Positions 10,684 through 60,900 of a DNA stretch of 64,000 nt are shown here, one piece after another (the first letter of the stretch is position 1; the number at the start of each line of letters is the position of its first letter). Source of the stretch: Raillietiella orientalis (lineage: Eukaryota); assembly GCA_036172245.1 (NCBI GenBank), contig JAYWIR010000024.1, positions 868,001 to 932,000 of the forward strand. Reading direction: 5' to 3'. The notes beneath the pieces were generated by a model. The model made no database searches, had not been told where the DNA came from, and was given only the letters and a program-made list of their open reading frames with translations. The position numbers and the translations under genes were made by a program.

Positions 10684-10699
10684 CCTCTTCTTATCCCTA

Positions 10700-14949: not shown

Positions 14950-17038
14950 GGAGACTGGTTCGGATGCGCTGCGGTCCGCAGCGGTGTCCGTCTCTCTATG
15001 GGAGTCCTCGCCAAGGCTGGTCGCGCAGTCTCCGTTGCGGACGGACTCCCGCAGCTCAAGAAAAGTGCTGCCTTCCATCAGTTCCCCTCTTCACCTCTTA
15101 TCTACGTCTCCCGCTCAACGAGAGCAGGGGCTTCTTCACGAGCTGACTCGATTCACGGGGTAAGGGAGGGTCCTCGCTACGATCCTGGAGCAGAAAGAGC
15201 CTCTATGCTCTCTCCCGCACCCTCCTCGGCACGAGCGGCCACGACCACCTGCCGAACGTTGCCGCCAGCGGACCCGCTCGACTGGGGCCAGTCACGCGCC
15301 TCGCAGCAAGGTCGGCCGGCACACGCGCTCTTCACCACCGCCTTTTCGGGCGCCGCAGCTCCCTTTCCCTTTCGAAAGAGACTCTTCGTGCCCGTCCTGC
15401 ACCTCCGCTTTGCCATCCGCCCGGACCTGAACCCTCGCCTGACGACCCAAGGAGAGGTGCTGGGAGTAGGCGCATTTTCCTCTCTGTGATCGTGGTGGCT
15501 GGATGGACGAGAAGGCCGCGGCAGGGAGCGGGAACGGTGGGCACGAGCGACACAACGCCGTGACACTGAGGAGAGGTCCCGTGACACAGAGACTGCACAC
15601 ACCACCAGCCACCAGCTTCACCCTTCCACGTACAACTGCGACGGGACTCCTTCGGTGGTGAGAACAGTTGAGTGTTGCTCCCGAAGAACTTGTGGTTCCA
15701 ACAAACTGCGTGAACGCATCAGTGTTCCCGCTTAGTTGGAGACAGGACGTGCTGCTCTTCCTGTACTGGGGATTCCATTGCAACGAGAGGTGGCACCGAT
15801 TTTCCTCAGAGGTTGTTCCCTCTAACTGTGCAGGGTGCGGGTCGACGGAGTCAATCCCGCCTCACCTGCTTCTAGACTGCGGTGCGCTCCAAGAACTGTG
15901 GAACTCCTGCACCAGGAGCACACCGCTCGAGATGTGCTGCCACGGTTCTTCGCATCGTGAGGACTCTCGACTGGGGTGGTGATATGACGTGTGCAGTCGC
16001 ACGTCGTCGCGACCACACCGCGCACGCAGGACAGCGCTGTGATTGCGGCTTCGGACGTCATGGCGTCCCGCAAGAGGAGGGGCCTCAAAGAGTCTCTGAG
16101 ATCGTCCACGGGGTGCGGAAGGGACGTGGAGAAACGTTCCCACAGTTCCCAGAGGGCGACATACTGCACTATGAGGTGGGGGAAAGTCTCCTTCTCTCCC
16201 CACCTGGCACAGTTAGGCGATGCGCTTCCCCTCGTCCAGTGGCGCCGTCGCGGATTGCACAGGAGATCTCAGTGCAGTATCAGCAGGGCCGATTGCTGCC
16301 ACTTGAGGGGAAGCAGCTTACTGTCCCTAAACACAAAGGGCACTTCCAACTCTTCGGGCTGAATGGAGAAGAGTTCGCCCCAACGTTCCAATCCTTTGGA
16401 GCGGTTCTTGGTGTTGTTGAGTCAGACAGCTGACGCGTTGTCCAGCCACCGATGGGCTTTCTGCGGGCCGAGATCTCTCAGGAACCTTCCCACTTCTCCG
16501 GTAGGCAGGTGACTGGCGCGGTGATTGCAACCAAGGGTTGTATCCGCGTCATCGTCGTGGCACGACATGTGCTGGAGAGCAACATGCAGCGAAGGGAGGC
16601 AGCCGTTTCCATCAGGGCGTCTGCAAGGTGGCCTCACCTGGAAGAAGAGACTCAGGCAGAGATCACTGGCATACAGCGCCGGTTGGTGGACCCTTAGGAA
16701 CGGCCGATTCCGGTGACCCTAATCTCTTGCCCCTCTTTATTTATTTATTTTCGTTCCGTATACCTTTTCACTCCGCGATTTTTCCGGTGTTTTTTTTGTT
16801 TTCATCTCGGTGCGGGTGAAGCGAATCCAAAGATCCTTGCTCCATCCCACCTAATTTAATTTATTTGTGTTGTTCCCTTGTCCCTTCCCCGTTCTGAATT
16901 GTCCATTATCCCAACGTGCGTGCGGGTGGACCCTCCCCCTTTTTTTTTTTGCTGTCGTCGGTTGGGAACCAGCGCGTACCCAACTGGTTTATTTTTTTTT
17001 TTTATAAAATGAACATCCCGGCGTCACTAGGTAACAAA
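14950..17038 (+). mobile_element. L1/Tx1-like LINE 3' part (host copy A), interrupted at ~15993-16510
   Basis: LLFLYWGFHCNERWHRF...CAGCGSTESIPPHLLLDCGALQELW (zinc finger). Reading resumes at 16512 as TGAVIATKGCIRV...ARWPHLEEE...VDP*, then a T-rich 3' UTR and terminal AATGAACATCCCGGCGTCACTAGG. Confidence 0.8.
15993..16510 (-). mobile_element. Antisense LINE ORF2 C-terminal fragment nested in host copy A
   Basis: Minus frame reads LLPLKWQQSALLILH*DLLCNPRRRHW...PNCARWGEKETFPHLIVQYVALWELW. It is homologous to 57455-57972 (23 mismatches in 300 nt by manual count over 16081-16380). Confidence 0.85.
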
Positions 17039-18235: not shown

Positions 18236-18704
18236 TCAACGGCAGAACGCGCTAATCATTTGAGGTCGCGAGCCCTTCCGCCCCAAGACAGACCGCGAGC
18301 AGAGGAGCAGCTCTCGTCCAGTCCTGGGCGCTGGATCCGGAACAGGCACGTTCTGGTTTTTCTCCATGCCGGCTGACCTGTGAAGTAGGAGAGGGGAAAG
18401 ACTCGGGTGGGGGCAACGGCAATTGGCCTACCAGGAACGAGTCCGGGAGTCTCTTTGGGGTGGGCAGAGGACCCATCGTGGGCGCGTAGTGGGCGTTCTG
18501 CCTTCTTCCCGTTCGGAGTCTTCCGAGGTTCCAGACGAGGCAACACCACGGCTGGGCGCAGACATGGTCGTAAGTGCTAGCTTGCCTCCGGCGACGGCAG
18601 CAGCCATCCAGTCCGAGGCGGAGTTCCCGGGAATGCCGTTTCGGTGCCTCGGGGCGTGGTCGCGCCGAATCCTGCGAGACCTCGAGTGATGTAGGCCATC
18701 TCCT

Positions 18705-18710
18705 CCGCCG

Positions 18711-18744
<34 letters not shown>
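18705..18744 (+). repeat. (CCG)n trinucleotide microsatellite
   Basis: About 13 CCG units with one TCG interruption. Confidence 0.95.
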
Positions 18745-19549
18745 TCCGTTCGCGAGGTCAGTTCGAGCCGCGCGCAGGTCGGAAGCAGAGCGTGCTGCCT
18801 CCTTGGTCCAGCACACGCCGCATCGTAGCGCCTCCTTCTCGCTTGCCCTTCCGTCCTTCCCCACTGCCATCGCTAGGCACCACGGGTTTCTTAATTCTTT
18901 TTTTTTCCTTTCCCTCTTCCCTGCTTTCGCCGACAACCCGGAAATCAGAGCTCATGCGCGTGCGCCGCGGGTCGACTGGCTTGCCTGAGGGTCGGCAGCT
19001 GAGGCGCACGTATGAATCCTGGGGAAAGGGACGTTTGGGTTGAGTGCCGGAAAGGGTCAGGGACGGGAGGATGTGGAAGCCCGGAGATGCGTGGAGCCAT
19101 CCTTTCTAGAGGAGACCCTTGCTGAGATCGCAGGGAGGGGAAGGAGAAGAGAAAAGGCACGAGTCACGAGACTGCAGGCGGATCGAAGTCTGCGAGGGAG
19201 CATCAGACGGAAGTCCGAGAGGCGCTCGGACCGAGACCTTGGGATGGGGGGAGAGGGCAGGGCAAAGAGAACCGAGGAGTGCTGAGTGGAGATGTCCCTG
19301 AGGAGGACGGAAAAGGAACGGGAGGACACGGATGGGGCAGAGAAGCCTCGGGCAAAGAGAGAAGGAAGGTCGGTACCGGCCGAGGCTCGCCATATCCAGG
19401 AGGATGAGAAAAAGAGCGAAGCCCTTGAGACGAAGCGGTCACGCGGGAGGATCGAGACGAGAAAAGATGGGGTGAAGACAAGAGAAGGGTGAAAGCTTTG
19501 AACGTCGAACGTGAGGTTTTGGTTGTCTTCGGGGTGACGACTCTCGTCC

Positions 19550-19900
19550 TCGGCTGTCCTCATCAATCTCCGGGAGATCATCCCTCCCCCCTCGCCCATC
19601 GAACACGACGCCCAGGGTTGCCAAGACCTTCCAGATCTGCGCGCTCCATCTCGTCCTACCCGTTCTCCTCCGGGAACGAGATACCGCGCCGGCGGGCCTC
19701 GAACACGTTCCCTGAGGTGCCTCAGGTTCGTGCCCAGATGCCAGCAGTCCGTGTTCGCTGACGTTACTCGAACCCTCAGGGACTCCTTTCCGAAGGAGCA
19801 GGGGATCGCTACACGAGTCCTCTGCACGAGTCCTCGGAGCGGTGGCAGATTCTGGAAAGAAGCAGCGGCCGGCAGCCTGCTTTGCTGGGACCCCGGTGAC
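19550..19900 (+). mobile_element. LINE ORF2 post-RT fragment
   Basis: SSYPFSSG (family PFSL motif) and TRVLCTSPRSGG (cf. LC.P...GGL). Confidence 0.35.
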
Positions 19901-22629
19901 ATTCTCCCTCCCGTCTCCCGTCCTCGTCCTCAGACCCTATGTCCCGCCCCGCTGCCATGGGAGCGAGGAGAAATGGGAAGAGGAGCCGCAGAGGAAGGAC
20001 GTGCTCTCTGTCTTGCCTTTCTTCAGAAGGGTGCCGGTTCTCTCCCCCCTGGTAGCTCGCATCTGGTGTTCCTGGTCGGGAAGTGAGAGACGCCACTGGG
20101 ATCCGAGAAGGAGGAAAGAACGGAAGGAGGGAGGGGAGGGCAGCTCGTGCGTTCTCGCGAGGGTTCGGCTGCCCCTCCTGGGAGCTCGTCCGTCGCGCAG
20201 CCGGTTGGCCGAGAGAGGCGGTCGCGATCGAGGTCAGGCGGTCGGCCCCGCTCGTCGCTGCCTTCCTGCGCATCTCCAGACCGACAGGATCCTCGGAAGA
20301 TGCGACGCGCGGAAGGTGACGTCTCCCGGGAGGCGGCGGAGGTGACACACGCGCGTGGGAATGTGGGTCGACGCCCTGCGCCAGCGCGCGCTTTCCGCGG
20401 GTCGAGGGAGGCGAGCCGCGGAGCATCACGGGAGGAGCGCACGCCCCATGTCTCTCCAGGAACAGAATTCCCGCTCCGGCGCCACCTTGGGGGAAGGAGC
20501 GAAGTGCAGCGGGGGAGAAGAGCCCAGTGCGGCCTCTCCCCTAGTCTTCCCCGTCGGGCGGAGAAGGAGAAGGTAAGTGGTGGTGAGAGGGTGGCGTGCA
20601 GACCGCGCAGCATAGGATGACCAGCCAGCCCGAGAAACGAGCGGTGGAGGCCCTTCCTCCTTCCGGTCTGCTGGCCCACCGAAAGCAAGGCGCTGCTTCT
20701 CGCCCTCTTCGTCTTCCGGGAGGAGCAGCAGCAGCGTGCGGTGTCGCGGGAAAGGGAGGCCTGCAGTCAGGAGCGGCCGCTGCTGTGATATCACTTCCTC
20801 CTCCCTTTTGACCGACCATCGTCCGCCGGCTCTTCGCGGAAGCGGAAGAAATGCCTGCGTCATGCGTGTGCACATCGCGGATGCAGGCGTCACTGGCGGC
20901 AAGGATACTCACGTGAGCACTGGCTCGCGCGACTCACCTACACACCGGACATGCGAGCAGGGCACACCCACCGCACTCAGAGACACACCGGACGTGTGAG
21001 CGGGCACGCCCAGAATCTGTGCTCTCCCTTGTCCAGCCGTCACCTCCTTCGGGAAACGTGACCTCGGCCCGCAACTGCAATGGGGCCTGCCGAATGCCCC
21101 TCTGCATTTGCGGCGGGACAGCTCTCCACCCGTCGCTCCTGTCTCCCGCGACCTTTCTTTGTTCTCCGGAGACACGGATCCTTGTGGTCCACGTGCCCCC
21201 TCGCACGTGCTCAGCGATCCGGTTCATCGGCGCCGTTGTTCCTGCCATCCGAGGCATGGGAAGGGAGGAGGTCGCCGCGAGGACAGCGCCGCGAGATTAC
21301 TCCTCCTCCTTCGGGAGCGTCTCCGGGTACCGGCTCCAAACATTCGTCCGGAGAGGGAGGAGAGAGACGGACGCCAGAGATACGAGTCCAGGAGAGACTT
21401 CTGCTCCCATCACCTTTGTCTTCTCCAGGTACCGAAGCCTTCACCTAGAAGGAGGCAACTCGTGCCCGTTGCCGCAAAGCTTCCAAGGATGAGGTCCGTT
21501 CTCGAGTCCCGGCATTTCGGAGACACCCCTCTGCTCGGCCCGGGGCTCGTACGCCGCCCACGGAAGTGTGGCCCGTCTGGTCAGCGGATGCCCCAATCCC
21601 CTCTTTCAGTCGCGGTGGACGGCCATGCTGACTCCCACGCAAGCCGGGACGCAGATCACAGACGAAGTGCGCACGGGGAGCGCGCGACACCTGCCCGTTG
21701 TGCGGCACGCGTCGCACGCGCCTGCATGCCCCGCGTAGTTGCCGGGGATCGGCTTCTCGGCTCGCCGCGAGCGAGCGTCCGTCTCTCTCTTCGGCTGCTG
21801 GCCTCGTGCCTCCGAGGCCAAGCGCTCCCTCTAGAACGAGTGCCGTCAGCTCCGGGAGGAAAGAAAGAGAACACCAGGAAAGATCGAGGTGTTTCCGTAA
21901 GGTGGAAAAAGGGAAGTTTCGGAGGACCACGCGGGGCAAAGTGGGATGGTCCCATCCCCTTGATAAGAGGGTGAGATGAAGAAAAGCAAGAAGTTTGTGG
22001 ACGCCGTCAGTCCGACGATGGAGCTCGAGTTCTCCAGAGGGCGAGTTCTTTTGCTTCCTTTGCTCCTGGAAAGGAAGGAAAAATCCGAAAAATCCTAGAT
22101 CTCGGCGGTGGCTGGGCGTCTGCAACGCTCTCGAGATTTTCGTCCCTGCCGCGTGAGGGCGACGTGTTCTCTTCCCACCCGTGGATTCCTTCTGCTCTGG
22201 ACAGCCTTGAGCCCCAAGGATCCAGGCTCCAGAAACTAGGAGAGATTCCTGAGGTCTGCTGGCAACTCAGGAGGCTTTCCAATATGACCACTAGGGAAGC
22301 GATCAGGAGCTGAAGAAAAATGTCAAACATCCCCCCCTTCCCTTCTTCCCGATTCCTTTGTCGAGGGTTCCAAAGGAAGGGAGCAGGAAAACGGAAGAGC
22401 TCGGGATTTTTCCTCGATGTCTTGTCTTCCCTCCTTCCTCTCTCCTCTGTCATCCCTTCGAGAGGAAGGGCGCAAACTCTGTGTCATCCTCCCTTTTCTT
22501 TCAGCTAGCAAGCGCGAAAGTAAACCGGCGTTTTCCGGCTGCTGGAGCTGCATCCGTGTCGCACCACATCCTTCCTCTGCAGAGAGCGTTTGGGGCAAAC
22601 ACGGGCAACGGGCCCCTGTAGAAGGAAAA

Positions 22630-22677
22630 CGCGCGCGCACGCGCGCACACACACACACACACACATACACACACACA
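22630..22677 (+). repeat. Alternating purine-pyrimidine (CG)/(CA)n microsatellite
   Basis: CGCGCGCGCACGCGCGCACACA...CATACACACACACA. Confidence 0.95.
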
Positions 22678-25299
22678 AAGAGCTCTCGCGCTAGTCGTCC
22701 TCTCAGACCCACATTTCCGTGGAAACGGTTCACGACTCCTTCGCGTGACCGCATTTGGAATGTTTACTGCAAAAGACACTGTTTTGCCGTCGGGTGCCCC
22801 GGTATCTGTGTTTTGGCGTCCGAGAACAAAGATGGGAAATGGAGAGGGAGGAGGAGGAGGAATTCCAACATTCCTTTTCTTCTTCTTCTTCTTCTACTTC
22901 CTTTCATTTTCTCGAGATTCGTTTCGCGAAAGAGGGAACCCACGGGACCCTCGATCACGTGCATTTTGTTTACGCAACGAGTTTGAAGTGCGGCGGCGGC
23001 CGTGGACTCCGAAGGAAGAATGCATCTGCGACATTGAGCGCGTGCGCGAGCTCGTGCCCGAAGATGAGCTGGAACCCGGGGGTGTCACTGCTAGCTGTAG
23101 GCCACCGCTCCAAGAACACGAAGAGCGAGAGGGGAGATGGCTGTGGGGAGGGATAGGGGGTACGAGAGGAAATCCGGAAATCCTGCATCTTCCAGTGAGA
23201 CGACAAGTACAGAGATCATGTCATCACCTATACATGGGAACAACGAAGGAACATCTTAAGCGAAGAAAGTGGATACAACGGCATGAAGACCACGAAGGTT
23301 CTGGAAAGAAGGACAGAGATAGAGAGGGAGATGCTCCCTTGTCCAAGAGGTCGATGAACTTGAAGATCCATCCATCTGATTTGAAACTGGGATCATCTCG
23401 TGGGAAAAGGACACGAACGGTGAATTAAGAGACTCTGTTTAGGTAGCCAACGCCTGCAAGCGACCTACCGCCCTTCTGAGCTCCAAAAGGAAGCAGGATC
23501 GAAGTTTTTTTCACCCCACGTTTTTCCCCCTCTTCCTGGATCCTATTCTGGTTTCCTTTCATTCTTCCGATCGCCTGCAATTCGCCGGTTTGGAGCTCCG
23601 TCGGGACGGCTAGTAGAGGTAGTCCGGTCTAACAACTTTCAGTCCGGTCCAATTTCCAGCTCGCAGCTCCAGCTGAGCCGAAAGAAATGACGCACGGTTG
23701 TCCTCCGAAGCCACGGACCGGAGAAGTGAGTGGCGATTTAGGCAGGGGTGGCATAACTACCTCCATCCGTCCCGATGCCGATGGCTCCTTTCCTTCTTGA
23801 GGAAGCATGTAATCTTTGTCGATAAGGATGACCGGCCATCTCCGAACCTGAAGTGAGACCACTTCTTTTCCTTCCCCGTTCTTTTCGACTGGCAGCTCCT
23901 TCCCTCCCTTTTCCCCGGTGCCATGCGATCCCATCGCTCGGACCGGCCGGCCGTCGAAGGAAAGCGTCCTGCCGGGAGGTAAGGGTGCGCTTCCACGCAT
24001 TTTCCTCTGATCTCCTATGGATTTCAAGATGGCGACCTCCACGACCCTGCGCGCCGCCGCGTTGGTGAGCTCCGTCGCGCACTATCTAGCTTCCGGGTGC
24101 TCTCGGAGTCCCGTCAGGAGGAAACACACACAAAAAAAAGGAGAAAATGCTGACGATGCTTCCGGGAAGCTCGCGAACTCATTCCTCTGATTGTGAAGGG
24201 TGACGATTCTGGCTCCCTCTCCGCCTCACTCAGTCGACCACTCCTCCCGCATTCTTTGCTCTTCTTCCCCCTGGTTCCGTGTTTTGAGATGCGAGGACCA
24301 GGAGACAGTTTTGGAGCTTTGCTCTTCGAACGGACCTCTCATCTCTTCCTGCTCGACCCGCGCGATAGTGGGCGTGTCCTCCATTTTCCTCGTGGCTGTC
24401 GGCCTACATAGTACGGCTTGCATACTTACTTTCCGAGGAGGATCCAGCCACGGTGCCCTCCGGAAGGTACGTTGATGGAAGGAAGTGATGCCCCGGTCCG
24501 GAGTGATTCAAGCCTCAACGCTTCCGGATATCCAGGAAAGCGGGACTCAGCCGTCGTCCTCCAGACAGAACGCCTTCCGTTTGCAGAGAACTTTAAGAGG
24601 GAGAGACGAATGAGAAAACGCGAGTCCAAGGGTGCAGGCAAATTCGAATGGCGGAGGCCTTCCTCGAGGAACGGGCAGCTCTCATTCGAAGGGAAAGTCC
24701 TTCGAATGCGACCTGAGGTGCAGCAGCGGAAAGGAGCTCCACATTCCCCCACCCCTTCAGAGAACTTTTGCGCGCTTCCCCCACGGAGATCCCCCGTAGA
24801 GAAGCTACAGATGGGAGCAGCTTCGGTTCGCGTTGCCTATGCGAATGAAGAGAGGTATTTCCGCTGTTCTTCCCTCCACGTCTCCATGCTCGAACGCCGT
24901 CTCGCCTTAAAGATCAATTGTTTTCGGTCCAATTTTTCTTTTATTTCCTTTCCTTTTCTTTCTTTTCTTCTTGTGGACTTGTCGAGAGCAAACTGCGTAA
25001 CCAAGCCACTGCTGGAACAGTGATTTCAACAGTATTGGATGGACGGGAAAAAGAGGGAGAGAAAAGAACGTCGGCACGGGGTTCTTTCTCGGGCCCCGAA
25101 TTCGAGATCTCCGGGAGCAAATTCACCGACCCATCTTGCCTGGTCGCTGAGGGACTCCAATCGGATGGAAAAAAACTTCGGTCGCCCGAAAGATTGTTAG
25201 GGGAGTTCGAATGATGAGATTCACTGCGCGTCTTGCAGGACTGCTACGTGTCTGGATCTGCTCTCTGCGCCTTGTGGACCTCGGAAAGTTTCATCTGAG

Positions 25300-26660: not shown

Positions 26661-27098
26661 ACACATCTTGTTATGGGACAAACATATTGTGCTCGTACAA
26701 TTCACGCCACTGTTGATATCCACTTAACACTAATGTAGCATCCCATAATATGCAAGACGTAAAACAATGTAGCTTCTTGTATGAGGCACTGTATTTAAGT
26801 CGGACGAATCAATTACAGTTAACGAATTTAGAAATCATGCAGTGAGTAGATGAGTTTTCCCTATGAAAACATGAAGGACGAGCCAGAATTAGCAAAAAGC
26901 TCACTCCAGGGGCTCCTTGCACTCGAGCTTGCCTGTCTCGACTCGAGAAGATCCTGCCTCCGCGTACCATTACGGGTAAAGTGCTTCCACCTTGTATGCC
27001 CGATCGTCAGAAAATAGGAGGACGAATGGCGGAGGACCCAAAGTCAGCCAGCTTCATCCGAAAGGTTTCATTTATTTCTGAGAACTAAATGTGATGTA

Positions 27099-28013
27099 CG
27101 AGGCGCATTTCAAAGGTAACTGCCGACCGGATATAAAGAAAGAACGAACAAGAGAGGAAAAAATGCATTGGCGGCTCTAAACACGTGCATCCCCGTGTCA
27201 TTTTTCTACGTAGTCACCATTTTTCCCCCAGCACTTTAGAAACCGTGGAACAAGATTTTTGAAATTCTCTGCATAAAATTACGTCGCCTGGGAGTCCAGC
27301 CAGTTCAGCGCTGCGGTTTTTAACTCCTCCTCACTTTCCTCGAATCATTGAACCACTTCTCGTGGTGCAGGAAGACGTCTTAGTCACTGGGCGCGAGGTC
27401 AGGACTGGAAGATGGGTGATCAAAAAGTTTCCATTTGAATTTCTGAATGGTCTGGAATGTGCGGGCAGCGCGTGTTGCCAAGGCGCTCGTTGTCGTGAAG
27501 GAGGAGAACAATTTCTGATCTCAGCATTCCACATCTTCAGTCCTGAATGACACGCCGCAGTGTGGAAAGTGTTTCACGGTAGACTTGCGAAGTGGTGGTC
27601 GTTCCAGGCTCCATAAAATCCACCAAAAGCACACCCTTTTGGTCCCGCACATTGCCGCCCACACATCCCAGACAATACAGAAATTCAAATGCGACCTTTC
27701 AATGCTGCCTGACCTCGCGCCCAGTGACTACCACGTCTTCCTTCCTGCACCTCAAGAGGTGGCTCAACGATCCGAGTAAAGTGAGGCGTTGAAAGCTGCA
27801 GTGCTCAACTGGCTGAAGTCCGAGGCGGCGGAATTTGTTGCAGAGGGTTTCAAAAAGCTTGTTCCACGGTATCTAAAGTGCTTGGGGAAAAATGGTGACT
27901 ACGTAGAAAAATGACACGGGGATGCACGTGTTTAGAGCCACCAATGCATTTTTGCCTCTCTTGTTCGTTCTTTCTTTCTATCCGATCGGTCTTTACTTTT
28001 GAAATGATCCCCG
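27099..28013. mobile_element. Non-autonomous mariner derivative made of two 3' ends in inverted orientation, flanked by TA
   Basis: TA at 27097-98 and 28014-15. Termini are CGAGGCGCATTTCAAAGGTAA and rc CGGGGATCATTTCAAAAGTAA. The minus arm encodes WDQKGVLLVDF...LLHDN...KFKWELFDHPSSSPDLAPSD. The plus arm encodes PDLAPSDYHVF..HLKRWL...FKKLVPRYLKCLGKNGDYVEK*. Confidence 0.93.
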
Positions 28014-28739
28014 TACCTACATTATGAATGCGCCTGCGCAAGTTCGTCTGCGCAGATTTAAAAAGCGATCGTCAGGCACTCGATAATAGGCACTCAGCAA
28101 TGGACCGGAACCTATCCGGTTTCCAGAAATGCCATCAGGAGGTCAAGTGACAGCTTGCCAGCTGTCAAGTGTCCAGAGGGACAACAGCGAAACACTTGCC
28201 TCCTTGAAGGATGTTTTTTGCAAGTGAGGATTCCGGGTATCCTCTTTGCTTGACGTCAGTAAAGGGTAATTCTGATGGCGCAGTATCGAATCGCATTCTA
28301 GGAATGGAGAAGATCATGAGGAAGGGCTACAGCATTCACAGAGAAGTGCCCGGACGTGAAATCAGACTTCTGGCTTGCATAAATGCCAGTGCTTAACAAC
28401 GAGCAGTAAAGGGCGGCAGAGTCATCGGTAAGTTCTTCAGTGAAAAGAGTAAGCACCAGAAGCAACAACACCTTTAGGATTCGAGGAGCCTAAGAATCCG
28501 GTTCTGAGGATGCACTACAGTGAAAGCTTTGAAAAGAGCACATCAGAAACGTGCATGTCAGCTTGTTGCTCCCGTTAATTTGTTCTGCATATCCACCTTC
28601 CGCTCTCTGCAGCACACTTTGGGAGAACTCCCTCTTGGCCTCATCTAGAGTCTTATAATTTTCTCCTGGAATTGAAAAAAAAAAAAAATCCATCTTGTTA
28701 AGTGGATGCTTACACTCTGAGGAGTCCTCCAGCACCAAG

Positions 28740-31480: not shown

Positions 31481-31939
31481 TACTCCTTCAGGGGGAACAC
31501 AGCCCCGTCACGGACGTGAATTGACGAGAACAGGCAGGCGGAGAAGGTGATGGAGGTTATCCTCCCTCTGTCTGTTCCTCCGCTTTTCAGCGTGGATGCA
31601 ATCATCAGGATGTGGTATCTTTTTTAAATCACTCTATCACTTTTAAATCAGTTTTCCCTCAGAAAAACTGGGGGCAAAGTGCAAAGCCCGTCAGGGGACG
31701 CACGCAGTGGCAAAGTGGATAAAGGATTTGCTCATCAAAGCTGCCAGGAGTAATAAGGATGCCCTATCAAAACAACAGTTTACGCTTGGCGGCCGTGGGA
31801 CTACGGTCTGCGCTCGCAGCGTTGCGTTCGAATCGTACTCGGGGGAGCAGCGACTCCGAGAAATGGGTGCGTCGTGGGTTTCGAGTCCCTCCTGGAAGGT
31901 GAGCCTGGTTGGCCTGTAGGCTTCGGGTGCGGCACTGGT

Positions 31940-32592
31940 TGACATCCGGTCACGCCGGAGCGCTTATTTATAAAATAAACATACATGTCTGTGGCAGGAC
32001 GTTTGATCCTGCGACGTTACTTAGGAATACGAGAAGGAACCCGCCGGCAACTGGCACGCAGGCCAGCGGGTTCACCTCGGCAGCACAAGGGAAGGGGAAA
32101 TAAACAAAAAGAAAAGAACAATAAAACAAAAAACATACAGTCCAAAAAATGAGAGGGGTTCGGGAAGGGATCACTGTGTGCTGGGGGCGCGGCAACTGGT
32201 TGACACACAAACAAAAAGAGAAAAACAAACCAAAAAAGATGCAGTCGAAAAAGATGAGGGGAGGGGGGAGGTTCGGGAAGGGATCACTGTGTGTTGGAGG
32301 GAGCCCGCTGCATCCTTGTAAGGATGCCGGCAAGTTCCTGTTTTATGGTTTTCAGATGGGGTCATCTTGACGCTTTCCTCTTGTAGAAGACAGCAAAATG
32401 GATGGCGTCCCTGTCGTTCTGGTCTCTGGCTTTGTTCCATGCGGCCACGATCCCGCGTAGGCAGCACAGTGCTGCTAGGGATGCGGCAGGCGAGAGGGCG
32501 TCGCTCAGGAAGAGGAGCTTTAAAACGTCTCTGGCTTTGCCGCCGGGGGTCCAAAGATCCGTGGCCAAGCGTCCCCAGAGGGTCTGGAGGGT
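31940..32592 (-). mobile_element. 5'-truncated antisense LINE 3' end with 9-bp TSD GGCACTGGT (31931-31939 / 32593-32601)
   Basis: Minus RDVLKLLFLSDALSPAASLAALCCLRGIVAA aligns with RDSLRSLFVRDAMTPAAATAALRCVSGVVAA (57.5 kb). The terminus is AATAAGCGCTCCGGCGTGACCGGATGTCA. The uninterrupted head is visible at 7984. Confidence 0.8.
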
Positions 32593-32629
32593 GGCACTGG
32601 TGGAAGCCGGAAACCGGATGCCCCCCATC

Positions 32630-33958
32630 AAGTAGCTTCCGGGATCGGAAGTGAGCCCTCCGAGGTCTTTCCAGCAGTCAAGGAGCTGGTTCTCTTCTCC
32701 CCTCCGGTTATGAAAATGGAGCCTCCTCTTCCCTTCCAAGTGAGAAGTACTCTCCATCCATTACCACGGAACTGGTTGATATCTTTCCAGAGTGTGAGAT
32801 GCGCGATGCTTCCTACGGGAAGCGACCCTTCAGAGAAAATTGGGAAGCGGCCCTTCGGGGGTCTCTTCAGAGAAGCAAACAAAAGACGATTCCTTTTTGC
32901 GCCCTCCCCTCCGGAGAACTTCCAGGTAAGGATCCATTCCGGGTTCCGTCGGAGAAGAAATGAGGAGTGACCTCCTCTGAGGTCCTTCCGGAGAGAATGA
33001 AAAAGAGGTTCCCTCCCGAGCGCAGGAGTCCGTTCTTCCTCCGGAGCCCTTCCTGGATTCATCAAGTGGTCCACTCCTGGGATGCTCTTTAACTGGAAGA
33101 GCCAACACGCACCCTCGGGTGACGTGGACACTGTTAAACATCTCCGCGAACTCTCCCTAAGGAGACCAACCGTTCTTCAGTACTCCTTGAGAACCAAAAA
33201 ATGGGACTGGAAGAAAAACAGAGAAACAGAAGAACCCCAAAAGGAGTTCCACCATCCTACGCCAATTGTCAAGATCTCCCCGTGAGACCGTTAAAAAAAA
33301 AAATAAAAGCAACAGTTTCTCAAGAAGTGCTTCAAAGCGGTTCCAGGGTGGTCGAGCGATTGCCATGGGTTTCGCAAGATGCTTTCGAGATGGTGGTCCT
33401 TAAATCGAGCACTCATAACTGGAAAGGAGGAGAGCGGAACCGTGGTGAATTTCGGAGCACCATACTGGCCGTCGCCTTCCCCTTTCGACGGCTTTCTGAC
33501 TGCTTGCGAAAAAGCCAGGCAACACAGGAAGAGCGCCATCTTCCAGTTGCCAGTTACCGACAGCTTGCTCTCCATTCCTTGTGCACACGAGTCTCGGCCT
33601 CGACACGGGCACTCGTCGTGAGACGATTCGGATCCTGGGATCCAAAAAACGATGCGGAGCTGTGAGAATTGAGAATCTGGAGGCGTAAAGCGAAACACAT
33701 CAGGAAGAAGTTGGTGTCTGCCAACATCTAGCTCTCTGCTCTCGTAGACTGAAGGAAGCTCTCGAGGACTACAGCCTCCATCGGTGGAGAAGGAAGATGA
33801 GAATTGTTTTTGCTACAAAGAGTGCGATGACTCCTGCTGTCAAACCAGTGGATGCACAACTAGTGAGGTGTTCCTATTCCTTTTTGAGCCGAGAAGACTC
33901 TTATGTCTCAAGAAGATCATGAAAGGGGAGATTCATGCCGCTATTGATGACTACCGCT
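32630..33958 (+). repeat. ~1.3 kb direct repeat, copy 1 (copy 2 at 59355-60679)
   Basis: ORF-track translations are essentially identical at offsets 26725/26721. The only indel I saw is an A11 vs A7 homopolymer. Confidence 0.97.
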
Positions 33959-37400: not shown

Positions 37401-37749
37401 GAGAATGGAGCTTCAGCTCCGGTTTCAAATGCTTACCCTTGTGACGAAGATATGGAGCACCACCTGGTGCGACCCTGCAAGGCCTCCTCGTAGAGCAAGC
37501 CACCGTCAGCATGTGACTTGAGTCCTTCCTTGCGCTCCGTCATTGTAACATCTCCCACTGCGGACTGCAGATTTGGAGGATGGCCACGTCCACCAAGAAG
37601 AACATCAGCTCGATCTCCTGCCACCCCGCGAACGGTAGTGCCTGGTTCCAGAAAACCGTTCGCACCTGGGAGAGAAACCAGGAGCGATGCCCGGAACAGG
37701 CACAACGTTTCCTGTACGGGTCCTAGGAACAGCTACCCGCTTCGAGAGA

Positions 37750-38720
37750 TCCTTCAAGATCCAGGGAAAAGTGCGTGGGCAGGAAGAACCTCCCTTGCCG
37801 CAGCTGTGCCCTAACTGGAGAAACACATGTGCAGCAGCCTTGCGGCTAAATGGAAATTTCGTGTTAAAATCTCCGCCAGGAGAGGAGAACTGGGAGAGTA
37901 GAGGACGATGGGACAACTTAAAGGCGCTGCGAACCAGAGAACCCTAATTCGAGGACTTTTGCGCTGGGGCGAGCTACTAGGTATTTAGGAGGGAGACCTG
38001 CAGTGGTTCCCAATGCTTTTGGACACACACACTTTTATTGAAGTGGCAGGAGTCGGCACTGATGCTGCTGTACTGGAGCTTCCCGTGCAACGCCTGCCAA
38101 TATCACTGGACACGGAGGTGTGTGGACCCAAGCTGTGCGGGGTGCGTGGGAGCGTGAATCCCTTCCACGTCTGCTTGTGGATTGTGTTGTTGCCCTCCAG
38201 CCCTTCTGAGAACTCTTTGCCTCGACCCTGAAATCCCTGGCGGCAACTCCAGGAACGCTCTGAAACCCCTCCTCGTTCGCGACGCCCTTCGGCCGGCAGC
38301 CTCGCTAGCAGCTCTCTGCTGAATACGAGGGATGGTAGCGACGCAGGAGGAGGACCGAGTGATAGGATTCCATTCACTTTGCAGTCCGCTTCATGAAGAT
38401 GGCAACACGACGGCCCCATCTGGAAACGTCATCCAGCAAGAGCTTACCGGATCCTCCAAAGGATGCAGAGGACCGCACCCAGCAGAACGTGATCTCTTCC
38501 CACACACCCCAAATTTGTTTGTTTATTTGTTTGTTTCTTTTTTTTTTCCTTTTTGTTTGCCCCTTCTCCCTTCTGATGCCGTGACGGACCTCATCAGTCT
38601 TTGTACCGGTAACACGGCAAGTTTGTTCTGAAAAGGACGTGGTTGGACCACCGGTCCAACCACAGAGATTATAAAGGTTTATTTTTGTATGAAATAAACG
38701 TCCCAGAGCACCCGGGTGAT
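37750..38720 (+). mobile_element. L1/Tx1-like LINE 3' end (zinc finger, 3' UTR, terminal motif)
   Basis: LKWQESALMLLYWSFPCNACQYHWTRRCVDPSCAGC..ESLPRLLVDC. The segment 38415-38500 is the reverse complement of the 57300-57380 segment. The terminus is AATAAACGTCCCAGAGCACCCGGG. Confidence 0.8.
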
Positions 38721-39849
38721 AATACAGGGGTCTTAACTTGTCTTCCTCCAAAGCTGTCTTCAAGGCAAAGTCCGAGAGACCCGAGAAACCGAAAAGGGGT
38801 GCGCAAGACCGGCGCCGGAAAAGGGGGTTCAGCTCTTGAGGTGCTGAAGAAGCAGCTTGGACCCCAGGGAGGACACGTCACCAGTCAATCACACCTCCAG
38901 GCCCAGGAGAAGCCGCGATTCGTTTTTTTGCTTGTAGTCCCTTTCTTCTCCCTCCTCCCCCCCCCCATTTTCCCCCAGAAGGATCGTCATCCCCTTCTTG
39001 CTCTGCCTTCCTACGTGGAGTGCGTGGAACTGTCTGTCACAAACACAGAGAGAGCTCTTGTCGCTCGAAACCATCTAAGAGGCAACCTTAATCATAAATA
39101 CCATCTTCTTCATTGTGGGAAGGATTTTCGTGACTCTCACGAGGCGCTCGACCGATCAATTGATCCATAAACATACAATTCGCGGGCTCCGCCAGGACCC
39201 AGATTGCTCTCGTGCGGATGAGATAAGCTGTCAAATAAAGAGCTACACCTGACACTTTTATCGTTTTCTCTTCGTGCAAATGTTTCCGTTTCCTCACCGT
39301 AATTGGTGTACCTGACTCCACGGCTGTGACCGCCTGCCGCAATTCTGCACGGATGCCTCTTTCCCGAGAAGTGGCCGGTAATTTGAAAGGAAAAACCCAT
39401 GGGTTGCTTCTTGTTCCAGACGTAAATAAGCAGAAGAACAAGAGCTCGTTTTCATTAGGTTCCCTCACAAGAGCACTCAAATGGTTCTCCGGAAGATTGC
39501 ATGCCCGAGACGGTTGTGGACCAGGACGGTGCACGTGTTGTACTGTTGAGGCAAGCGTCTCCCCCTCCCAGGAGACCGTGCTTCCACGACACTTCTTGGA
39601 GGCAGTGGCGATGAGGGTCGCCGCATCCCACACCGAGGAGGAAACTCCCGACTCGAACGACGACACCGAGGACAAGAGGATAGCACGAGTGAATTCCTCT
39701 CCTTCTCGCGACGCGGGAAAGAGATTCGGAAAGTAAGCAAAGCTCACGGTGGTGCTGAGTGGAATGGAAAGGAGGAGGAGGGAGGGAGAAATTACGACTA
39801 ATGAAGCGATTTATCTTTTTCTGAGCGGTCGTCTTGGTTGCCGAGACCC

Positions 39850-51029: not shown

Positions 51030-51835
51030 TCTCTCTCTCTCCTCCCTCGTTTCTGGACTTTCTAATGGAGACTTCCACGATTAAGAGCTCGGCCGACAAT
51101 TCCAGCAGGATTGTGGCTTTTCGGCATCTTTGGATCCGGAACAAGTTCTTTCGTGAGTATCTTCAGGGTTTCCACGTTTGCCATCCGACGTCTGAGAAGC
51201 TTTCCTGGTATCCGGAAGATCATTCCAGCTTTTAGAAGTGGCGCTTCAGAACCACACGCTCGTGTCTTTGTGCCATCTTGAAGGAAGCTTCATGGGGAAA
51301 GCAGGGACGAGCGGTGGAGGAGGCATGCAAAGGGATCGAACGTTGAAGGTCAGTTCAATGGAAATGGAAACATCGCGGCTGACTGCCTGATGATAGCCAC
51401 CGGAGTCATCAGGGAGGCGGCGCGACCCGAATCTCCCTTTCCTTCTTCCTTGCCGTTCGCTGCCATTGCCTTCCGCGATGGTTTCCTGCTGGTTGCATCA
51501 TGCATTTGCCCGCGCGTTCTTGTCACTCCAAGCAGCCGCACGGCAAAGGGGAAAATCCTGCTCGAGTCCCTCAGAAGTAAAGGGGTCCGTGCTGATCGAG
51601 ATGGCAGGAAGCTTTGCTCGCCCTTTTCTGGAAGCGAAAGGAAAAAAGAACCGTTCTGCATCCCCTTCCTCCGTTCCCTTTTTTTTGGAAGCCGGCCTGC
51701 GGGCCGGTGGTCATCCCGGATGAACTTCTTTTTATGGCTTTTCTTGTTTTTTTCCTGGGGGTACATATCCCCTGAAACTTGTAGGTTGTTTTGTTTTTTT
51801 AACGAAATAAACGTTCCGGCGTGACCGGGTTAAAT
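51030..51835 (+). mobile_element. Decayed LINE 3' end with family terminal motif
   Basis: QDC..FRHLW and CHLE remnants; terminal AATAAACGTTCCGGCGTGACCGGGTTAAA at 51806-51834. Confidence 0.5.
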
Positions 51836-51849
51836 CCTCTTCCGCTCTC

Positions 51850-56229: not shown

Positions 56230-58795
56230 ATCGAAAATCGCGAAGGAGCTGCCTTCCTGGTTTCAGGCAGGAGAGCAGAGAGGGCGGCATTGGCTTAGAC
56301 GGGAAGCACCGATCCTTCCGAATTTCCTTCCGTGTTGTGCGGAAGGCAGCGGCCTTCAGAAGGACCTGCGGGAGCTTTTATCTCTCATCCGCATTTGAAA
56401 ATGGTCTTCTGCTCGCTCGGCTGACGCAAATTCCTCCGCGGCCATTTCTCTGGAGAATGGAGCAGAAAGGAGTCTTCGATGGAAGTAGCAGCACATCTAC
56501 GGCGCTCTCGTCGTTTGGTACCGATGGGAGCGAGCAAGATCGGAGAAGAGCTGGAATCGAAGGGCAGGAGTTCTGTGCTTTGTCATGACGAAGACCGACG
56601 GCCCTCGTTGCACTCTTCTCTTCTTGAGGACCGAGAGCACCTCTTTTCGAGGAAAGATCATTAAGGAAGGTAATCATGCCACGACGTTCAGATTCAGTAC
56701 CCGAAATAGTGACGCACCGAAAGGCAAAAGGACACTTAGCTTCTCTATATCCTCGATACTTTTTCAACCTCAGATTGTTTTCTTGGACCGGTCAGTCAGC
56801 AACTTTGCGGGATGTGCGTGGTCGACGAGCAGCACCCAAAGGCATCGAACCCGGTCCCGACCATTCCGCGTCCCAAGGAAGGTTCTGCTTTTTCTAGACT
56901 GGGGATTCCAGTGTAGTCAGTGCAGGCAACTTACCTCCCCGAAGTGTTTCAGATGCTTGGACTGTTGGACTGCAGTGCCCTGGAGGACATGTGGAGAAGA
57001 CTCGTTCCGGAGCTCCGTCGACTGCAGGCCGCCGCTTCGGACTTGTTGCGGCGCTTCTTCACTCAAGGCGGGCTGAAGACGGGCGCTGTGGTTTCACAGC
57101 CGGGTGCGCCGGGGAGTTTATTCTCTTACAGGAATTGATGGAGCCGATGGCCCACCAGTTCTAATTGTTACACTAGAAAGAAGGGGAAGCGGAGAGGTCC
57201 ATCACGTCCACGAAGGGGAAGGGGGGTGAAAGAAAAAGAGAAAATGAAAACAAACTATAGCAAGCAACAAAAAAAAAGAAAATTAGTTGGGTAGAAGGGA
57301 AGGGATCACATTTCGTGGTGGGTGAGGCCTCTGCATCCGTTGAAGGATGCCGGCGAGCTCCTCCTTCCCCCTTTCCAGATGGCACCATCTCAAAGCTGTG
57401 TGTAGGAAGCGGATGGCGTGCAGGGCAGCCCCCCCGTCGCTCCGACCTCTCTCGGAGTTGCACTTGGCTGCGACGACACCGCTCACGCAGCGCAGAGCTG
57501 CTGTTGCGGCTGCGGGCGTCATGGCATCTCGCACGAAGAGGGATCTCAAAGAGTCTCTGAGATCGTCCACGGGGTGCGGAAGTGGCGTGGAGAAACCTTC
57601 TCACAAGACCCGGAGGATGACGCACTGCACTAAGAGGTGGGGGAAAGTCTCCTTCTCTCCCCACCTGGCACAGTTAGGCGATGCGCTTCCCCTCGTCCAG
57701 TGGCGCCGTCGCGGATTGCACGGGAGATCTCAGTGCAGTATCAGCAACGCCGATTGCTGCCACTTGAGAGGAAGCAGCTTACTGTCCCTAAACACAAGGG
57801 GCACTTCCAACTCTTCGGGCCGAGTGGAGAAGAGTTCGCCTCAACGTTCCAATCCTTTGGAGACGGTTCTTGCTGTTGCCGTGACAACCAGCTGACTCGT
57901 AGTCCAGCCACCTATTGGCTTTCTGCGGGCCGAGATCTCGCAGGAAACCTCCCACTTCGCCGGTAGGCAGGTATTATGTACCTCGATAGAGGAGGACACC
58001 ACTGCAGCGAAGGGGACGGATGGCTGGTGGGTAGGGTGCCAACATAGTCATCTCACTACCACCGCCTCCAGTGTTCTTCCGCTGTTCTTCTGAAACTCTC
58101 GGCAGCGGGTAACTTCTGGAGGGGCCCGGGTGATCTGAGCCCATGTCTTCACTTTCTTCTGCCGCCATGCCGGAGTATTTGCAGGGCGGCAGCGAATCCA
58201 CGTGTTCGCTCTCACCAGAGCAGCGACACACTAGTGAGGGAAGCCGCAAGATGGGAGCCGGCGGTGGTGACACGCAAACAGGGTTGAGAGTCCTTCGCCA
58301 CCGACCCCCAGCCGGGAGAGCAAACATGCAGGGGCGCACCAATGGGTAATCCAGTTCTGTGCCACGAAGGCTAGTCGGGCGCTGTGGTCGCAACAAGATG
58401 CTACATCTGCTCCATGGTGGCAGTCCTCCATGTGTTGGAGTCTCATTTGCAATGAAAAGAGGCCACCAGCATGACAACTACCTTCACAAGAACGGCTGCA
58501 AGGTGGCCTCATCTGCCAAAAGAAGTCATTAGTAAGATCGCCACCATAAACGGCTGTTTCTAGAAAGTAAGGAACGAATAAAACCAAAGACGCCTGTCTA
58601 CTACGATTCCGTCTTTATCCTTTTATTCATTATTTGATGTGCCTTTCTCCGTTCCCTACTTTTTTTAGAAGCTGTCCTGCGTGCTAGTGGTATTCCCCAA
58701 TGAACTTTTTTTTTGGTCTTTCTTATATTTCTTTGGCCTCCCCTCTAACCTGAGGTTTATTTTTTAAATAAATGTTCCGGGGTCACGGGGTAAAA
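56230..58795 (+). mobile_element. L1/Tx1-like LINE 3' part (host copy B), interrupted at 57093-58375
   Basis: SREGGIGL, LLFLDWGFQC and LLDCSALEDMW...KTGAVV. Reading resumes as SGAVVATRCY...AARWPHLPKE. The terminus is AATAAATGTTCCGGGGTCACGGGG (58767-58790). Confidence 0.8.
57093..58375 (-). mobile_element. 5'-truncated antisense LINE insertion with 13-bp TSD CGGGCGCTGTGGT
   Basis: Perfect TSD at 57080-57092 and 58376-58388. The minus strand carries the zinc-finger region, ...LRWCHLERGKEELAGIL, the 3' UTR and terminus AATAAACTCCCCGGCGCACCCGGCTGTGAA. Confidence 0.9.
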
Positions 58796-59189
58796 ATCAA
58801 AGACATCGAACACGGAGAGATCAATGAAGTTTTTTGATGGTAGCAGAAGGAACTGACTTTTCCACGAGTTTCCTCGGTAACCAAGAGAGCAACTACCAGG
58901 CAAGCAAGAATGCAATACCGGCAAGTCTTGTTCATGAAGCGATGACGGAGCTGAAGGCTCGCAATTCGATTCCTGGAAGCACCTTTCTTGTGCCATCATC
59001 TCGCGATGGAGACATTCTCGTGCGCTTCTGGCATGAAAAATTCAGGGCAGAATGGTTAACGGCGGAAAACACTTAGCATCCCACAGCTTACGATAAGAAG
59101 CATTTTTTCCCATAGCCTTGTCCTTTCCTTTTTTTTTTTTTCTTCTCGTTTTAGGAAGACCTTTTTTTCTACTGCTGATAAAAAAAGTC

Positions 59190-60900
59190 CGCGCGCGCCA
59201 CGGAGCGCTGCGGGTTCGAATCCTCACTTAGAGGATCAATGTCGGGTTTCAAGGGTTTCGAATGCCCCTTCCTCTCAGGATGATACTGGTTGGCCGGGCA
59301 ACAGGTGAAGCACTGGTGGGCGCACGCGCGCAAATGGAGACCGGACACCCCGTTAAGTAGATTCCGGGATCGGAAGTGAGCCCTCCGAGGTCTTTCCAGC
59401 AGTCAAGGAGCTGGTTCTCTTCTCCCCTCCGGTTATGAAAATGGAGCCTCCTCTTCCCTTCCAAGTGAGAAGTACTCTCCATCCATTACCACGGAACTGG
59501 TTGATATCTTTCCAGAGTGTGAGATGCGCGATGCTTCCTACGGGAAGCGACCCTTCAGAGAAAATTGGGAAGCGGCCCTTCGGGGGTCTCTTCAGAGAAG
59601 CAAACAAAAGACGATTCCTTTTTGCGCCCTCCCCTCCGGAGAACTTCCAGGTAAGGATCCATTCCGGGTTCCGTCGGAGAAGAAATGAGGAGTGACCTCC
59701 TCTGAGGTCCTTCCGGAGAGAATGAAAAAGAGGTTCCCTCCCGAGCGCAGGAGTCCGTTCTTCCTCCGGAGCCCTTCCTGGATTCATCAAGTGGTCCACT
59801 CCTGGGATGCTCTTTAACTGGAAGAGCCAACACGCACCCTCGGGTGACGTGGACACTGTTAAACATCTCCGCGAACTCTCCCTAAGGAGACCAACCGTTC
59901 TTCAGTACTCCTTGAGAACCAAAAAATGGGACTGGAAGAAAAACAGAGAAACAGAAGAACCCCAAAAGGAGTTCCACCATCCTACGCCAATTGTCAAGAT
60001 CTCCCCGTGAGACCGTTAAAAAAATAAAAGCAACAGTTTCTCAAGAAGTGCTTCAAAGCGGTTCCAGGGTGGTCGAGCGATTGCCATGGGTTTCGCAAGA
60101 TGCTTTCGAGATGGTGGTCCTTAAATCGAGCACTCATAACTGGAAAGGAGGAGAGCGGAACCGTGGTGAATTTCGGAGCACCATACTGGCCGTCGCCTTC
60201 CCCTTTCGACGGCTTTCTGACTGCTTGCGAAAAAGCCAGGCAACACAGGAAGAGCGCCATCTTCCAGTTGCCAGTTACCGACAGCTTGCTCTCCATTCCT
60301 TGTGCACACGAGTCTCGGCCTCGACACGGGCACTCGTCGTGAGACGATTCGGATCCTGGGATCCAAAAAACGATGCGGAGCTGTGAGAATTGAGAATCTG
60401 GAGGCGTAAAGCGAAACACATCAGGAAGAAGTTGGTGTCTGCCAACATCTAGCTCTCTGCTCTCGTAGACTGAAGGAAGCTCTCGAGGACTACAGCCTCC
60501 ATCGGTGGAGAAGGAAGATGAGAATTGTTTTTGCTACAAAGAGTGCGATGACTCCTGCTGTCAAACCAGTGGATGCACAACTAGTGAGGTGTTCCTATTC
60601 CTTTTTGAGCCGAGAAGACTCTTATGTCTCAAGAAGATCACGAAAGAAGAGATTCATGCCACTATTGGAGACTACCGCTTCAATTAATAGGATTGCTCCC
60701 TATAACTTGAAGATTGATGCACCCTCCGACGGTGTGGTCAGTGCTAAAGATTTCCTCGATCACTCTCCTACTCTCCCTAAGGAAGCGAACGGTTCTTCAG
60801 CACCTAGCGAACCAAAAAAGAAAAAAAAAGATGGAAGGGAAACAGAGAAACAGGAGAACCCAGAAAGGAATCCCATCATTCTGAGACAACAGTAACGATC
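59190..60900 (+). mobile_element. Element with B-box head and ORF1-like body; contains copy 2 (59355-60679) of the 1.3 kb repeat
   Basis: GGTTCGAATCC at 59213-59223, then GAGGATCAA, CAGGATGATACTGGTTGGCC and GCACTGGTGG. The following sequence is near-identical to 32630-33919. Confidence 0.7.

Follow-up and report, generated by a model that had tools for sequence, protein, structure and literature searches.

In a 64,000-nucleotide stretch of the Raillietiella orientalis genome (assembly GCA_036172245.1, contig JAYWIR010000024.1, positions 868,001 to 932,000), we found two diverged copies of one family of long interspersed nuclear elements (LINEs), each of which is interrupted at the same homologous nucleotide by an antisense fragment of another LINE family. 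This whole stretch is called the window here, and all coordinates refer to it. The interrupted copies are named hosts A and B and the fragments that they carry inserts A and B. With moderate confidence, we conclude that antisense fragments of one LINE subfamily entered these two host copies in two independent events, at the same specifically cut site. An earlier note, made from the letters of this DNA alone, had proposed two independent antisense insertions at one fixed host position, and this proposal agrees with our data: the loci are separate, each insert has its own target site duplication (TSD), the insert ends differ and the duplicated site is the same.

Results

Insert B

The earlier note had described host B as split by a minus-strand LINE 3' fragment with a perfect 13-bp TSD, and this description was confirmed. 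The 13-mer CGGGCGCTGTGGT occurs exactly twice in the whole window, and its two copies (13/13 matching) are located directly at the ends of insert B, which spans 57093-58375. For a perfect 13-bp TSD at the exact insert ends a chance probability of about 2e-6 was calculated. The insert end AATAAACTCCCCGGCGCACCCGG...TGTGAA adjoins position 57093, the minus-strand LINE 3' terminus, and positions 5-1280 of the insert are colinear with 37435-38719 of a related element, copy C (nhmmer, alignment). With its complete 3' terminus, its 5' truncation and its perfect TSD, insert B is a canonical nested product of target-primed reverse transcription (TPRT). A 6-nt palindrome at its junction (GCTGTG/CACAGC, found by eye) was considered as a complementarity between primer and LINE RNA; it is absent from the junction of copy D, another relative of the inserts, insert A offers no LINE 3' terminus for a comparison, and the palindrome was treated as chance.

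Insert A and its flanking repeats

Insert A is a 527-bp internal fragment of the same LINE subfamily. Its limits were set at 15984-16510 because the repeats GACTGGGGTGGTGAT and GACTGGCGCGGTGAT bound that stretch. These repeats have the consensus GACTGG(G/C)G(T/C)GGTGAT, and the two copies (15969-15983 and 16511-16525) agree at 13 of 15 positions, for which the chance probability is about 1e-4 when 49 offset pairs are allowed for. The earlier reservation that the insert at 16 kb has no TSD is thus removed. Compared with insert B, insert A is shorter by about 363 bp at the 3' end and by about 403 bp at the 5' end, and the earlier claim that the two inserts have different 5' ends can be extended to their 3' ends. 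Despite the missing LINE 3' end, the boundary of insert A coincides exactly with the duplication.

In nhmmer, insert A scored 415.9 bits. BLAST aligned the two inserts with 88.8% identity over 517 bp, and the global alignment (465 matches, 62 mismatches, 4 gap columns) gave an identity of about 88%; in the common coding part it was 85%. The value of about 92% given before therefore applies to the core, whereas it is too high for the whole insert. The core is 95-100% identical between A and B, and the left edge (62-78%) is near the level of the hosts. At the right junction of A, the insert is still 90-100% identical, and directly beyond it the host falls to about 60%.

A structural feature was seen at the left side of this locus (15969-16022): the left flanking repeat and the homologous site that insert A itself carries lie about 25 nt apart in inverted orientation and form an imperfect, hairpin-prone inverted repeat. 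It might be related to the missing 3' part of insert A.

The two hosts

The hosts are separate, short and separately retrotransposed LINE copies. They differ in their own TSDs and in their 5' truncation points, and in a self-comparison of the window the two loci shared nothing beyond the elements. Without the insert, host B (56851-58797) is about 651 bp long, and its flanks carry the candidate TSD CAAAG(G/A)CATCGAAC. Of the 14 positions of this repeat 13 agree between the two copies, whereas chance alone would give about 0.009 such matches in the searched region. For host A (about 15628-17038, about 867 bp without the insert) we found the candidate TSD CTTC(A/G)CCCTTCC at 15616-15627 and 17039-17050 (11/12 identical). 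With about 0.18 matches expected, this repeat is not significant alone, but it is located where the homology starts. These two findings place the start of host A most likely near 15628 and not at 14950 as had been stated before; the start of host B at 56851 was derived in the same way.

On the alignments, hosts A and B and a short fragment (copy E) are assigned to one LINE family, and the inserts together with copies C and D to another. The hosts are about 60-67% identical to each other and either of them is about 50% identical to the insert family. With gaps left out of the count, 106 positions of the left host flanks match and 52 do not (67% identity); for the right flanks there are 126 matches and 70 mismatches (64%). 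Counted gapless in the register of the junction, 29/50 positions upstream and 30/50 downstream are identical, which is close to the earlier estimate of about 62%. Within the insert family, the inserts are 56% identical to copy C in the common coding part and 59% identical to copy D, and 68% was found between C and D. Calculated from the coordinates, host-family sequence makes up about 2.7% of the window.

The earlier view that a young subfamily had inserted into older relatives was not supported. The TSDs of the hosts (13/14 and 11/12) and those of the inserts (13/13 and 13/15) have decayed to a similar degree, so that an age difference is not measurable.

The common break

The gapless alignment of the hosts stays in register across the junction and, because of this, it can be seen that one and the same homologous nucleotide terminates the left repeat in B (GTG GT^C) and in A (GTG AT^T). 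The starts of the repeats are 2 nt apart, which gives repeat lengths of 13 bp in B and 15 bp in A. An earlier reading had put the two positions within about 2 nt of each other; for the repeat ends the agreement is stronger than that, and the 2-nt difference concerns the starts only. Both insert-subfamily copies of the window are located here, and neither of the two host-family copies that include this position is empty.

When the window was searched for the 17-mer target with up to 3 mismatches, only three LINE sites were found (those of B and A and the homologous site of insert A itself), compared with 0.15 expected, and none of 100 shuffled sequences reached three. The third of them (16006-16022, minus strand) matches the B target at 14/17 positions and carries no insertion. 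For the degenerate motif GGC(G/A)CTG(T)GGT, for which an enrichment check had been suggested, the window contains 2 matches, both of them TSD copies, at an expectation of 3.0; the motif is not enriched at this scale.

These junctions suggest the following mechanism. The sense strand of both hosts would be nicked at one bond in the valine/isoleucine codon of T-G-A-V-(V/I), that is at ...GCTGTGGT^CGCAAC in B and at ...GYGGTGAT^TGCAAC in A. A nick of the other strand 13 nt (B) or 15 nt (A) upstream would then give rise to the flanking duplications. The anatomy of the loci and their independence are shown; as the agent of the staggered break we infer an endonuclease, belonging to the insert family or to its autonomous partner, that is specific for this sequence or strongly prefers it. 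In the case of insert B, the 3'-OH of the host sense strand (...GCTGTGGT-3'OH) would have primed complementary DNA (cDNA) synthesis from the exact LINE 3' end, the opposite strand would have been cut 13 nt upstream and the copy would then have been 5'-truncated. Insert A is not a standard TPRT product, since about 363 bp including the conserved 3' terminus are missing. It may have originated either from an aberrant, internally initiated event or from a cDNA or DNA fragment that was captured at the same staggered break after fill-in.

Assignment to LINEs and searches for relatives

The copies share a common 3' terminus, are variably truncated at the 5' end and are flanked by TSDs, as is characteristic of LINEs. 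Their lengths are 1283 bp (insert B), 527 bp (insert A), about 651 and about 867 bp (hosts B and A), 649 bp (copy D) and about 190 bp (copy E). The terminus motif AATAAA..CCGG..GG was found at three ends (57093 on the minus strand, 51806 and 58767 on the plus strand) compared with 0.25 expected, and one of 100 shuffles reached three; looser versions of the motif are present at the ends of host A and of copies C and D. By eye, a zinc knuckle can be recognised in host A (CAGC-x8-H-x4-C) and in the inserts (CARW-x8-H-x4-C). In the minus-strand frame of insert B, read with X at 6 stops, the CCHC-like knuckle has the sequence NCARWGEKETFPHLLVQC. This read-through matched the Pfam family zf-RVT (PF13966) with E = 0.023 and 15.8 bits, which is below the cut-off of 27.5 bits.

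Pfam searches covered 148 of the 185 open reading frames (ORFs) of at least 110 amino acids in the window. The other 37 are overlapping ORFs at about 18.6-23.4, 53.9-54.7 and 61.8-62.6 kb, none of which overlaps the LINE elements. Neither a reverse transcriptase (RT) domain nor an endonuclease domain was detected by Pfam in the scanned ORFs. An RT is not expected in these copies because all of them are 5'-truncated to at most about 1.3 kb. As no catalytic domain was found in the window, the LINE label rests on the anatomy of the copies, i.e. on 3' terminus, 5' truncation, TSDs and zinc knuckle. In the scanned ORFs the sole Pfam match was HCV_capsid (E = 0.0073, sub-threshold) and it was treated as chance.

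A 106-amino-acid ORF of host A matched no Pfam family. When it was searched with HMMER against 1.84 billion representative sequences, seven matches with E-values up to 1e-3 were obtained and treated as spurious; the five that we inspected were cysteine-rich proteins (SRCR-like by our own reading) or low-complexity repeat proteins. Homologous-protein searches among longer proteins with the 105-amino-acid tail of the second ORF (ORF2) and with the 364-amino-acid read-through gave no match. Exact-pattern scans with the invariant core of the insert found no locus in metagenome contigs and none in prokaryote genome contigs. In a protein-guided scan of metagenome contigs 98 stretches were matched by pattern, none of which was confirmed by tblastn.

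Table 1. Positions of the host copies, their inserts, the flanking duplications and the related elements in the window (UTR, untranslated region)
Feature	Position	Strand	Evidence
Host B own TSD, left copy, CAAAGGCATCGAAC	56837..56850	+	13/14 vs 58798-58811
Host B, left part (5'-truncated end of LINE ORF2, up to TGAVV codons)	56851..57092	+	nhmmer, host A as model: 56878-57085; translation
Insert B, left TSD, CGGGCGCTGTGGT	57080..57092	+	exact 13-mer, twice in window
Insert B, 1283-bp 5'-truncated LINE 3' fragment; 3' terminus at 57093	57093-58375	minus	
Insert B, right TSD, CGGGCGCTGTGGT	58376..58388	+	second exact copy
Host B, right part (ORF2 tail, 3' UTR, 3' terminus)	58389..58797	+	nhmmer match to host A; terminus motif 58767-58790
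Host B own TSD, right copy, CAAAGACATCGAAC	58798..58811	+	13/14 vs 56837-56850
Host A candidate own TSD, left copy, CTTCACCCTTCC	15616..15627	+	11/12 vs 17039-17050
Host A, left part, with zinc-knuckle motif CAGCGSTESIPPHLLLDC	15628..15983	+	translation; nhmmer, host B as model: 15745-15981
Insert A, left flanking repeat, GACTGGGGTGGTGAT	15969..15983	+	13/15 vs 16511-16525
Insert A, 527-bp internal fragment, same LINE subfamily as insert B	15984..16510	minus	BLAST, nhmmer
Insert A, right flanking repeat, GACTGGCGCGGTGAT	16511..16525	+	13/15 vs 15969-15983
Host A, right part (ORF2 tail, 3' UTR, 3' terminus)	16526..17038	+	nhmmer and MAFFT alignments
Copy E, short 3' UTR fragment of host family, too short for target site	51640..51836	+	nhmmer with host B model: 51664-51835; terminus motif 51806-51829; 5' limit approximate
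Copy D, insert-family relative in tRNA-like repeat	31940..32588	minus	nhmmer
Copy C, insert-family relative, about 56% identical in common coding part	37435..38722	+	nhmmer 187.8 bits; alignment

Copy D and its surroundings

Copy D is flanked by a TSD of 14-15 bp, GGGTG(C)GGCACTGGT, at 31925-31939 and 32589-32601 (about 14/15 matching), and empty paralogous sites for it were found at 7955-8010 and 59296-59345. The insertion sites of A, B and D share TG(G/A)T^ and scattered G positions; counted by eye, D fits about 6-7 of the 10-12 positions that are conserved between A and B, which is marginal.

The repeat that surrounds copy D has a head that is present three times in the window (7860-8010, 31800-31939 and 59190-59335). 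It contains two boxes similar to the T-arm of tRNAs (GGTTCGAATC / GGTTCGATCCCC, GGGTTTCGAG) and ends with ...CTGGTTGGCC..GGCACTGGTGGA. This is probably the tRNA-derived head of a short interspersed nuclear element (SINE), one copy of which hosts copy D; ARAGORN found 0 tRNA genes and thus none at these heads. In addition, a 1350-bp unit occurs twice (32609-33958 and 59336-60679) with 98.7% identity. Divergence is much greater between the tRNA-like sequences directly to the left of the unit (31800-31939 and 59190-59335), and the jump in identity is located about 10-20 bp from the 5' end of copy D. We may be dealing with a young element, with a conversion tract or with a composite SINE-like repeat whose body was homogenised recently.

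Other features of the window

At 9990-10741 (minus strand) the window contains an isolated partial fragment of eukaryotic large subunit (LSU) rRNA outside any rDNA unit (Rfam RF02543, 265.7 bits, model positions 667-1453 of 3401), and about 450 bp from it there is a very decayed LINE-like piece (11197-11355, plus strand). The LSU fragment may be an rRNA retro-fragment or the relic of an rDNA-associated insertion. The segments 27088-27469 and 27654-28023 form an inverted repeat (about 380 bp, 81.6% identity, spacer of about 185 bp). The stretch 18000-23500 is rich in GC (60-65%), has long overlapping ORFs on both strands and includes a (CA)n-type tract that reads HTHTHTH. It may be a low-complexity exon or a CpG-rich island; just one of its ORFs of at least 110 amino acids (18255-18872) was in the Pfam scan.

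Discussion

Several of our findings weigh against the conclusion that hosts A and B were hit independently at a specifically cut site. There are just two events, and the case was picked from a very large scan of windows, in which some chance coincidences are to be expected somewhere. The homologous sites are empty in all four insert-family copies, including insert A itself and copy C, whose homologous site is uninterrupted. Copy C is located in a non-LINE flank, and copy D was inserted at an unrelated site that has only TGGT^ and a few G positions in common with the target. Insert A lacks the roughly 363 bp of LINE 3' end that would be expected in a normal TPRT product, and among the scanned ORFs there is no RT or endonuclease that could be assigned to the insert family. 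Moreover, the identity between the inserts is uneven and varies from 62% to 100% per 40 columns (chi-square 44.9, 12 degrees of freedom, p = 1e-5). With this spread it is not what simple neutral decay from one master would predict. The differences between the inserts are spread without codon bias (23/18/22 by codon position; 14 of the codon differences are synonymous and 38 non-synonymous), and both inserts have an in-frame TGA (LILH*DL) and, in the zinc knuckle, a Cys-to-Trp change. This region was therefore already defective in the source common to both, which must have been mobilised in trans or copied otherwise.

Part of this evidence would be accommodated by a single ancestral composite, in which copying and divergence started from a host-family master with the antisense insert already in place, and in which later deletions and gene conversion of the core gave rise to A and B. 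The mosaic identity of the inserts, highly conserved in the core and close to the host level at the left edge, suits such a history. So do the shared stop codon and Cys-to-Trp change and the neutral pattern of differences, which fit descent from one dead copy, as well as the similar decay of host and insert repeats. However, locus A would then require two deletions, one of 363 bp and one of 403 bp, which would both have to end no more than about 2 nt from the boundary between insert and duplication, and an intact 13/13 TSD in B has a probability of only about 0.003-0.015 if the insertion predates the host divergence of about 35%. The abrupt fall of identity at the right junction of A does not fit either. 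One duplicated composite is also unlikely because the hosts have their own candidate TSDs, different flanks and an identity of only about 60-67%; segmental duplication of a composite locus was rejected, since the flanks of A and B share nothing in the self-comparison of the window. On balance we hold a common composite ancestor to be unlikely. We judge it quite unlikely that two unrelated insertions came to the same place by coincidence, or because a fragile or open DNA site met with a loose preference in nicking, such as TGRT^. The little that A, B and D have in common (TG(G/A)T^ and scattered Gs, with a marginal fit of D), the selection of the case from a very large scan and the lack of enrichment of the degenerate motif in the window speak for such a coincidence or loose preference. 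Against it, the host family makes up about 2.7% of the window, the probability of meeting the exact same bond and the same orientation in a second host copy under uniform insertion is of order 1e-5 per event, and both events involve the same insert subfamily.

An origin without any site-specific endonuclease can also be envisaged. During retrotransposition of the host, the RT might have paused at structured host RNA, copied an antisense template of the other family and returned 13-15 nt back. It is established that LINE reverse transcriptases switch templates (U6/L1 chimaeras, twin priming), the TSD decay does not separate the ages of hosts and inserts, and an insert such as A, which has no LINE 3' end, suits a copied internal fragment. 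Insert B fits poorly, as it has the full signature of ordinary nested TPRT with the exact LINE 3' terminus at the duplication, and, for the inverted orientation to arise, antisense DNA would have to be available as a free template with its end precisely at the LINE terminus. Two returns to the same nucleotide would be needed in hosts that are 60% identical, for which we know of no precedent, and we consider template switching very unlikely. Twin priming and fold-back self-priming were rejected: with an identity of only about 50% between the antisense insert and the sequence of the host itself, the antisense and sense parts do not come from one RNA.

Two independent insertions at one specifically cut site, the conclusion that we favour, would have wider implications if a dedicated activity stands behind them. 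It is conceivable, but doubtful at present, that there is a LINE lineage with non-autonomous derivatives whose endonuclease recognises, in the 3'-terminal part of ORF2 of a different LINE family, the conserved coding motif T-G-A-V-V/I-A-T (GGCGCTGTGGT^CGCAAC), where the lineage inserts in antisense. On the scale of the genome, the LINE-on-LINE niche proposed earlier is a hypothesis and was not supported. The known targets of target-specific LINEs comprise genes for rRNA, small nuclear RNA (snRNA), tRNA and spliced leaders, besides microsatellites, telomeres and a single DNA transposon. If a retrotransposon were dedicated to the coding tail of a second one, it would have found a new kind of safe haven. 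Because of 5' truncation, LINE 3' ends are the most abundant LINE sequence in a genome, and the haven would therefore consist of dead relatives. Such a lineage would also create self-propagating nests of inverted LINE fragments, which are possible seeds of inverted repeats, sources of small RNAs and sites of rearrangement. Target-specific LINEs are natural models for programmable RNA-templated gene insertion and for selfish elements that spare their host, and the common nick yields a short candidate recognition sequence, GACGGGCGCTGTGGT^CGCAAC. If the site preference does not hold genome-wide, the locus is just a case of two nested LINE fragments.

Narrow phrase searches of the literature, which are weak evidence of novelty, found no LINE that targets another LINE. 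Some known systems resemble the present loci in part. L1 twin priming yields an antisense LINE segment and, after it, a LINE 3' segment in sense orientation, both derived from one RNA. The same succession of segments is seen here, but the two parts are only about 50% identical, a sense host segment is also present upstream and a duplication flanks the insert. In studies of HO breaks in yeast, fragments of retroelement cDNA or DNA were reportedly captured at double-strand breaks. Capture of this kind could explain insert A, which is an internal fragment with neither LINE terminus at a filled-in staggered cut. Alone it does not explain why the same bond was used as in B, and insert B looks like an ordinary TPRT product.

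A hot spot for insertion of ingi and RIME elements exists in the RHS (retrotransposon hot spot) genes of trypanosomes (PMC7563717). A diverged multicopy family is repeatedly interrupted at one coding position, there by a LINE/SINE pair, which resembles our loci. The RHS genes differ from our hosts in being a cellular gene family and not a retrotransposon, and our two cases allow no statistics.

Another parallel is offered by the target-specific elements of the Tx1 and R1 clades with an apurinic/apyrimidinic endonuclease (APE), such as Tx1L in a DNA transposon, Keno in U2, Mutsu in 5S and Dewa in tRNA arrays. Unlike these elements, the inserts described here would have the coding 3' end of another LINE family as target, in antisense orientation; there are two cases, relatives C and D are located elsewhere and, as no RT or endonuclease domain was found in the window, membership in the Tx1 clade is not supported. 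What the inserts share with Tx1/R1-clade elements is the use of one nucleotide position of a multicopy sequence, a precise 3' junction together with a variable 5' junction, and short TSDs. As in the case of Tx1L, the target is another mobile element. For target-specific elements without long terminal repeats (non-LTR elements), a 3' junction that is precise and a 5' junction that varies have been reported (PMC4640811).

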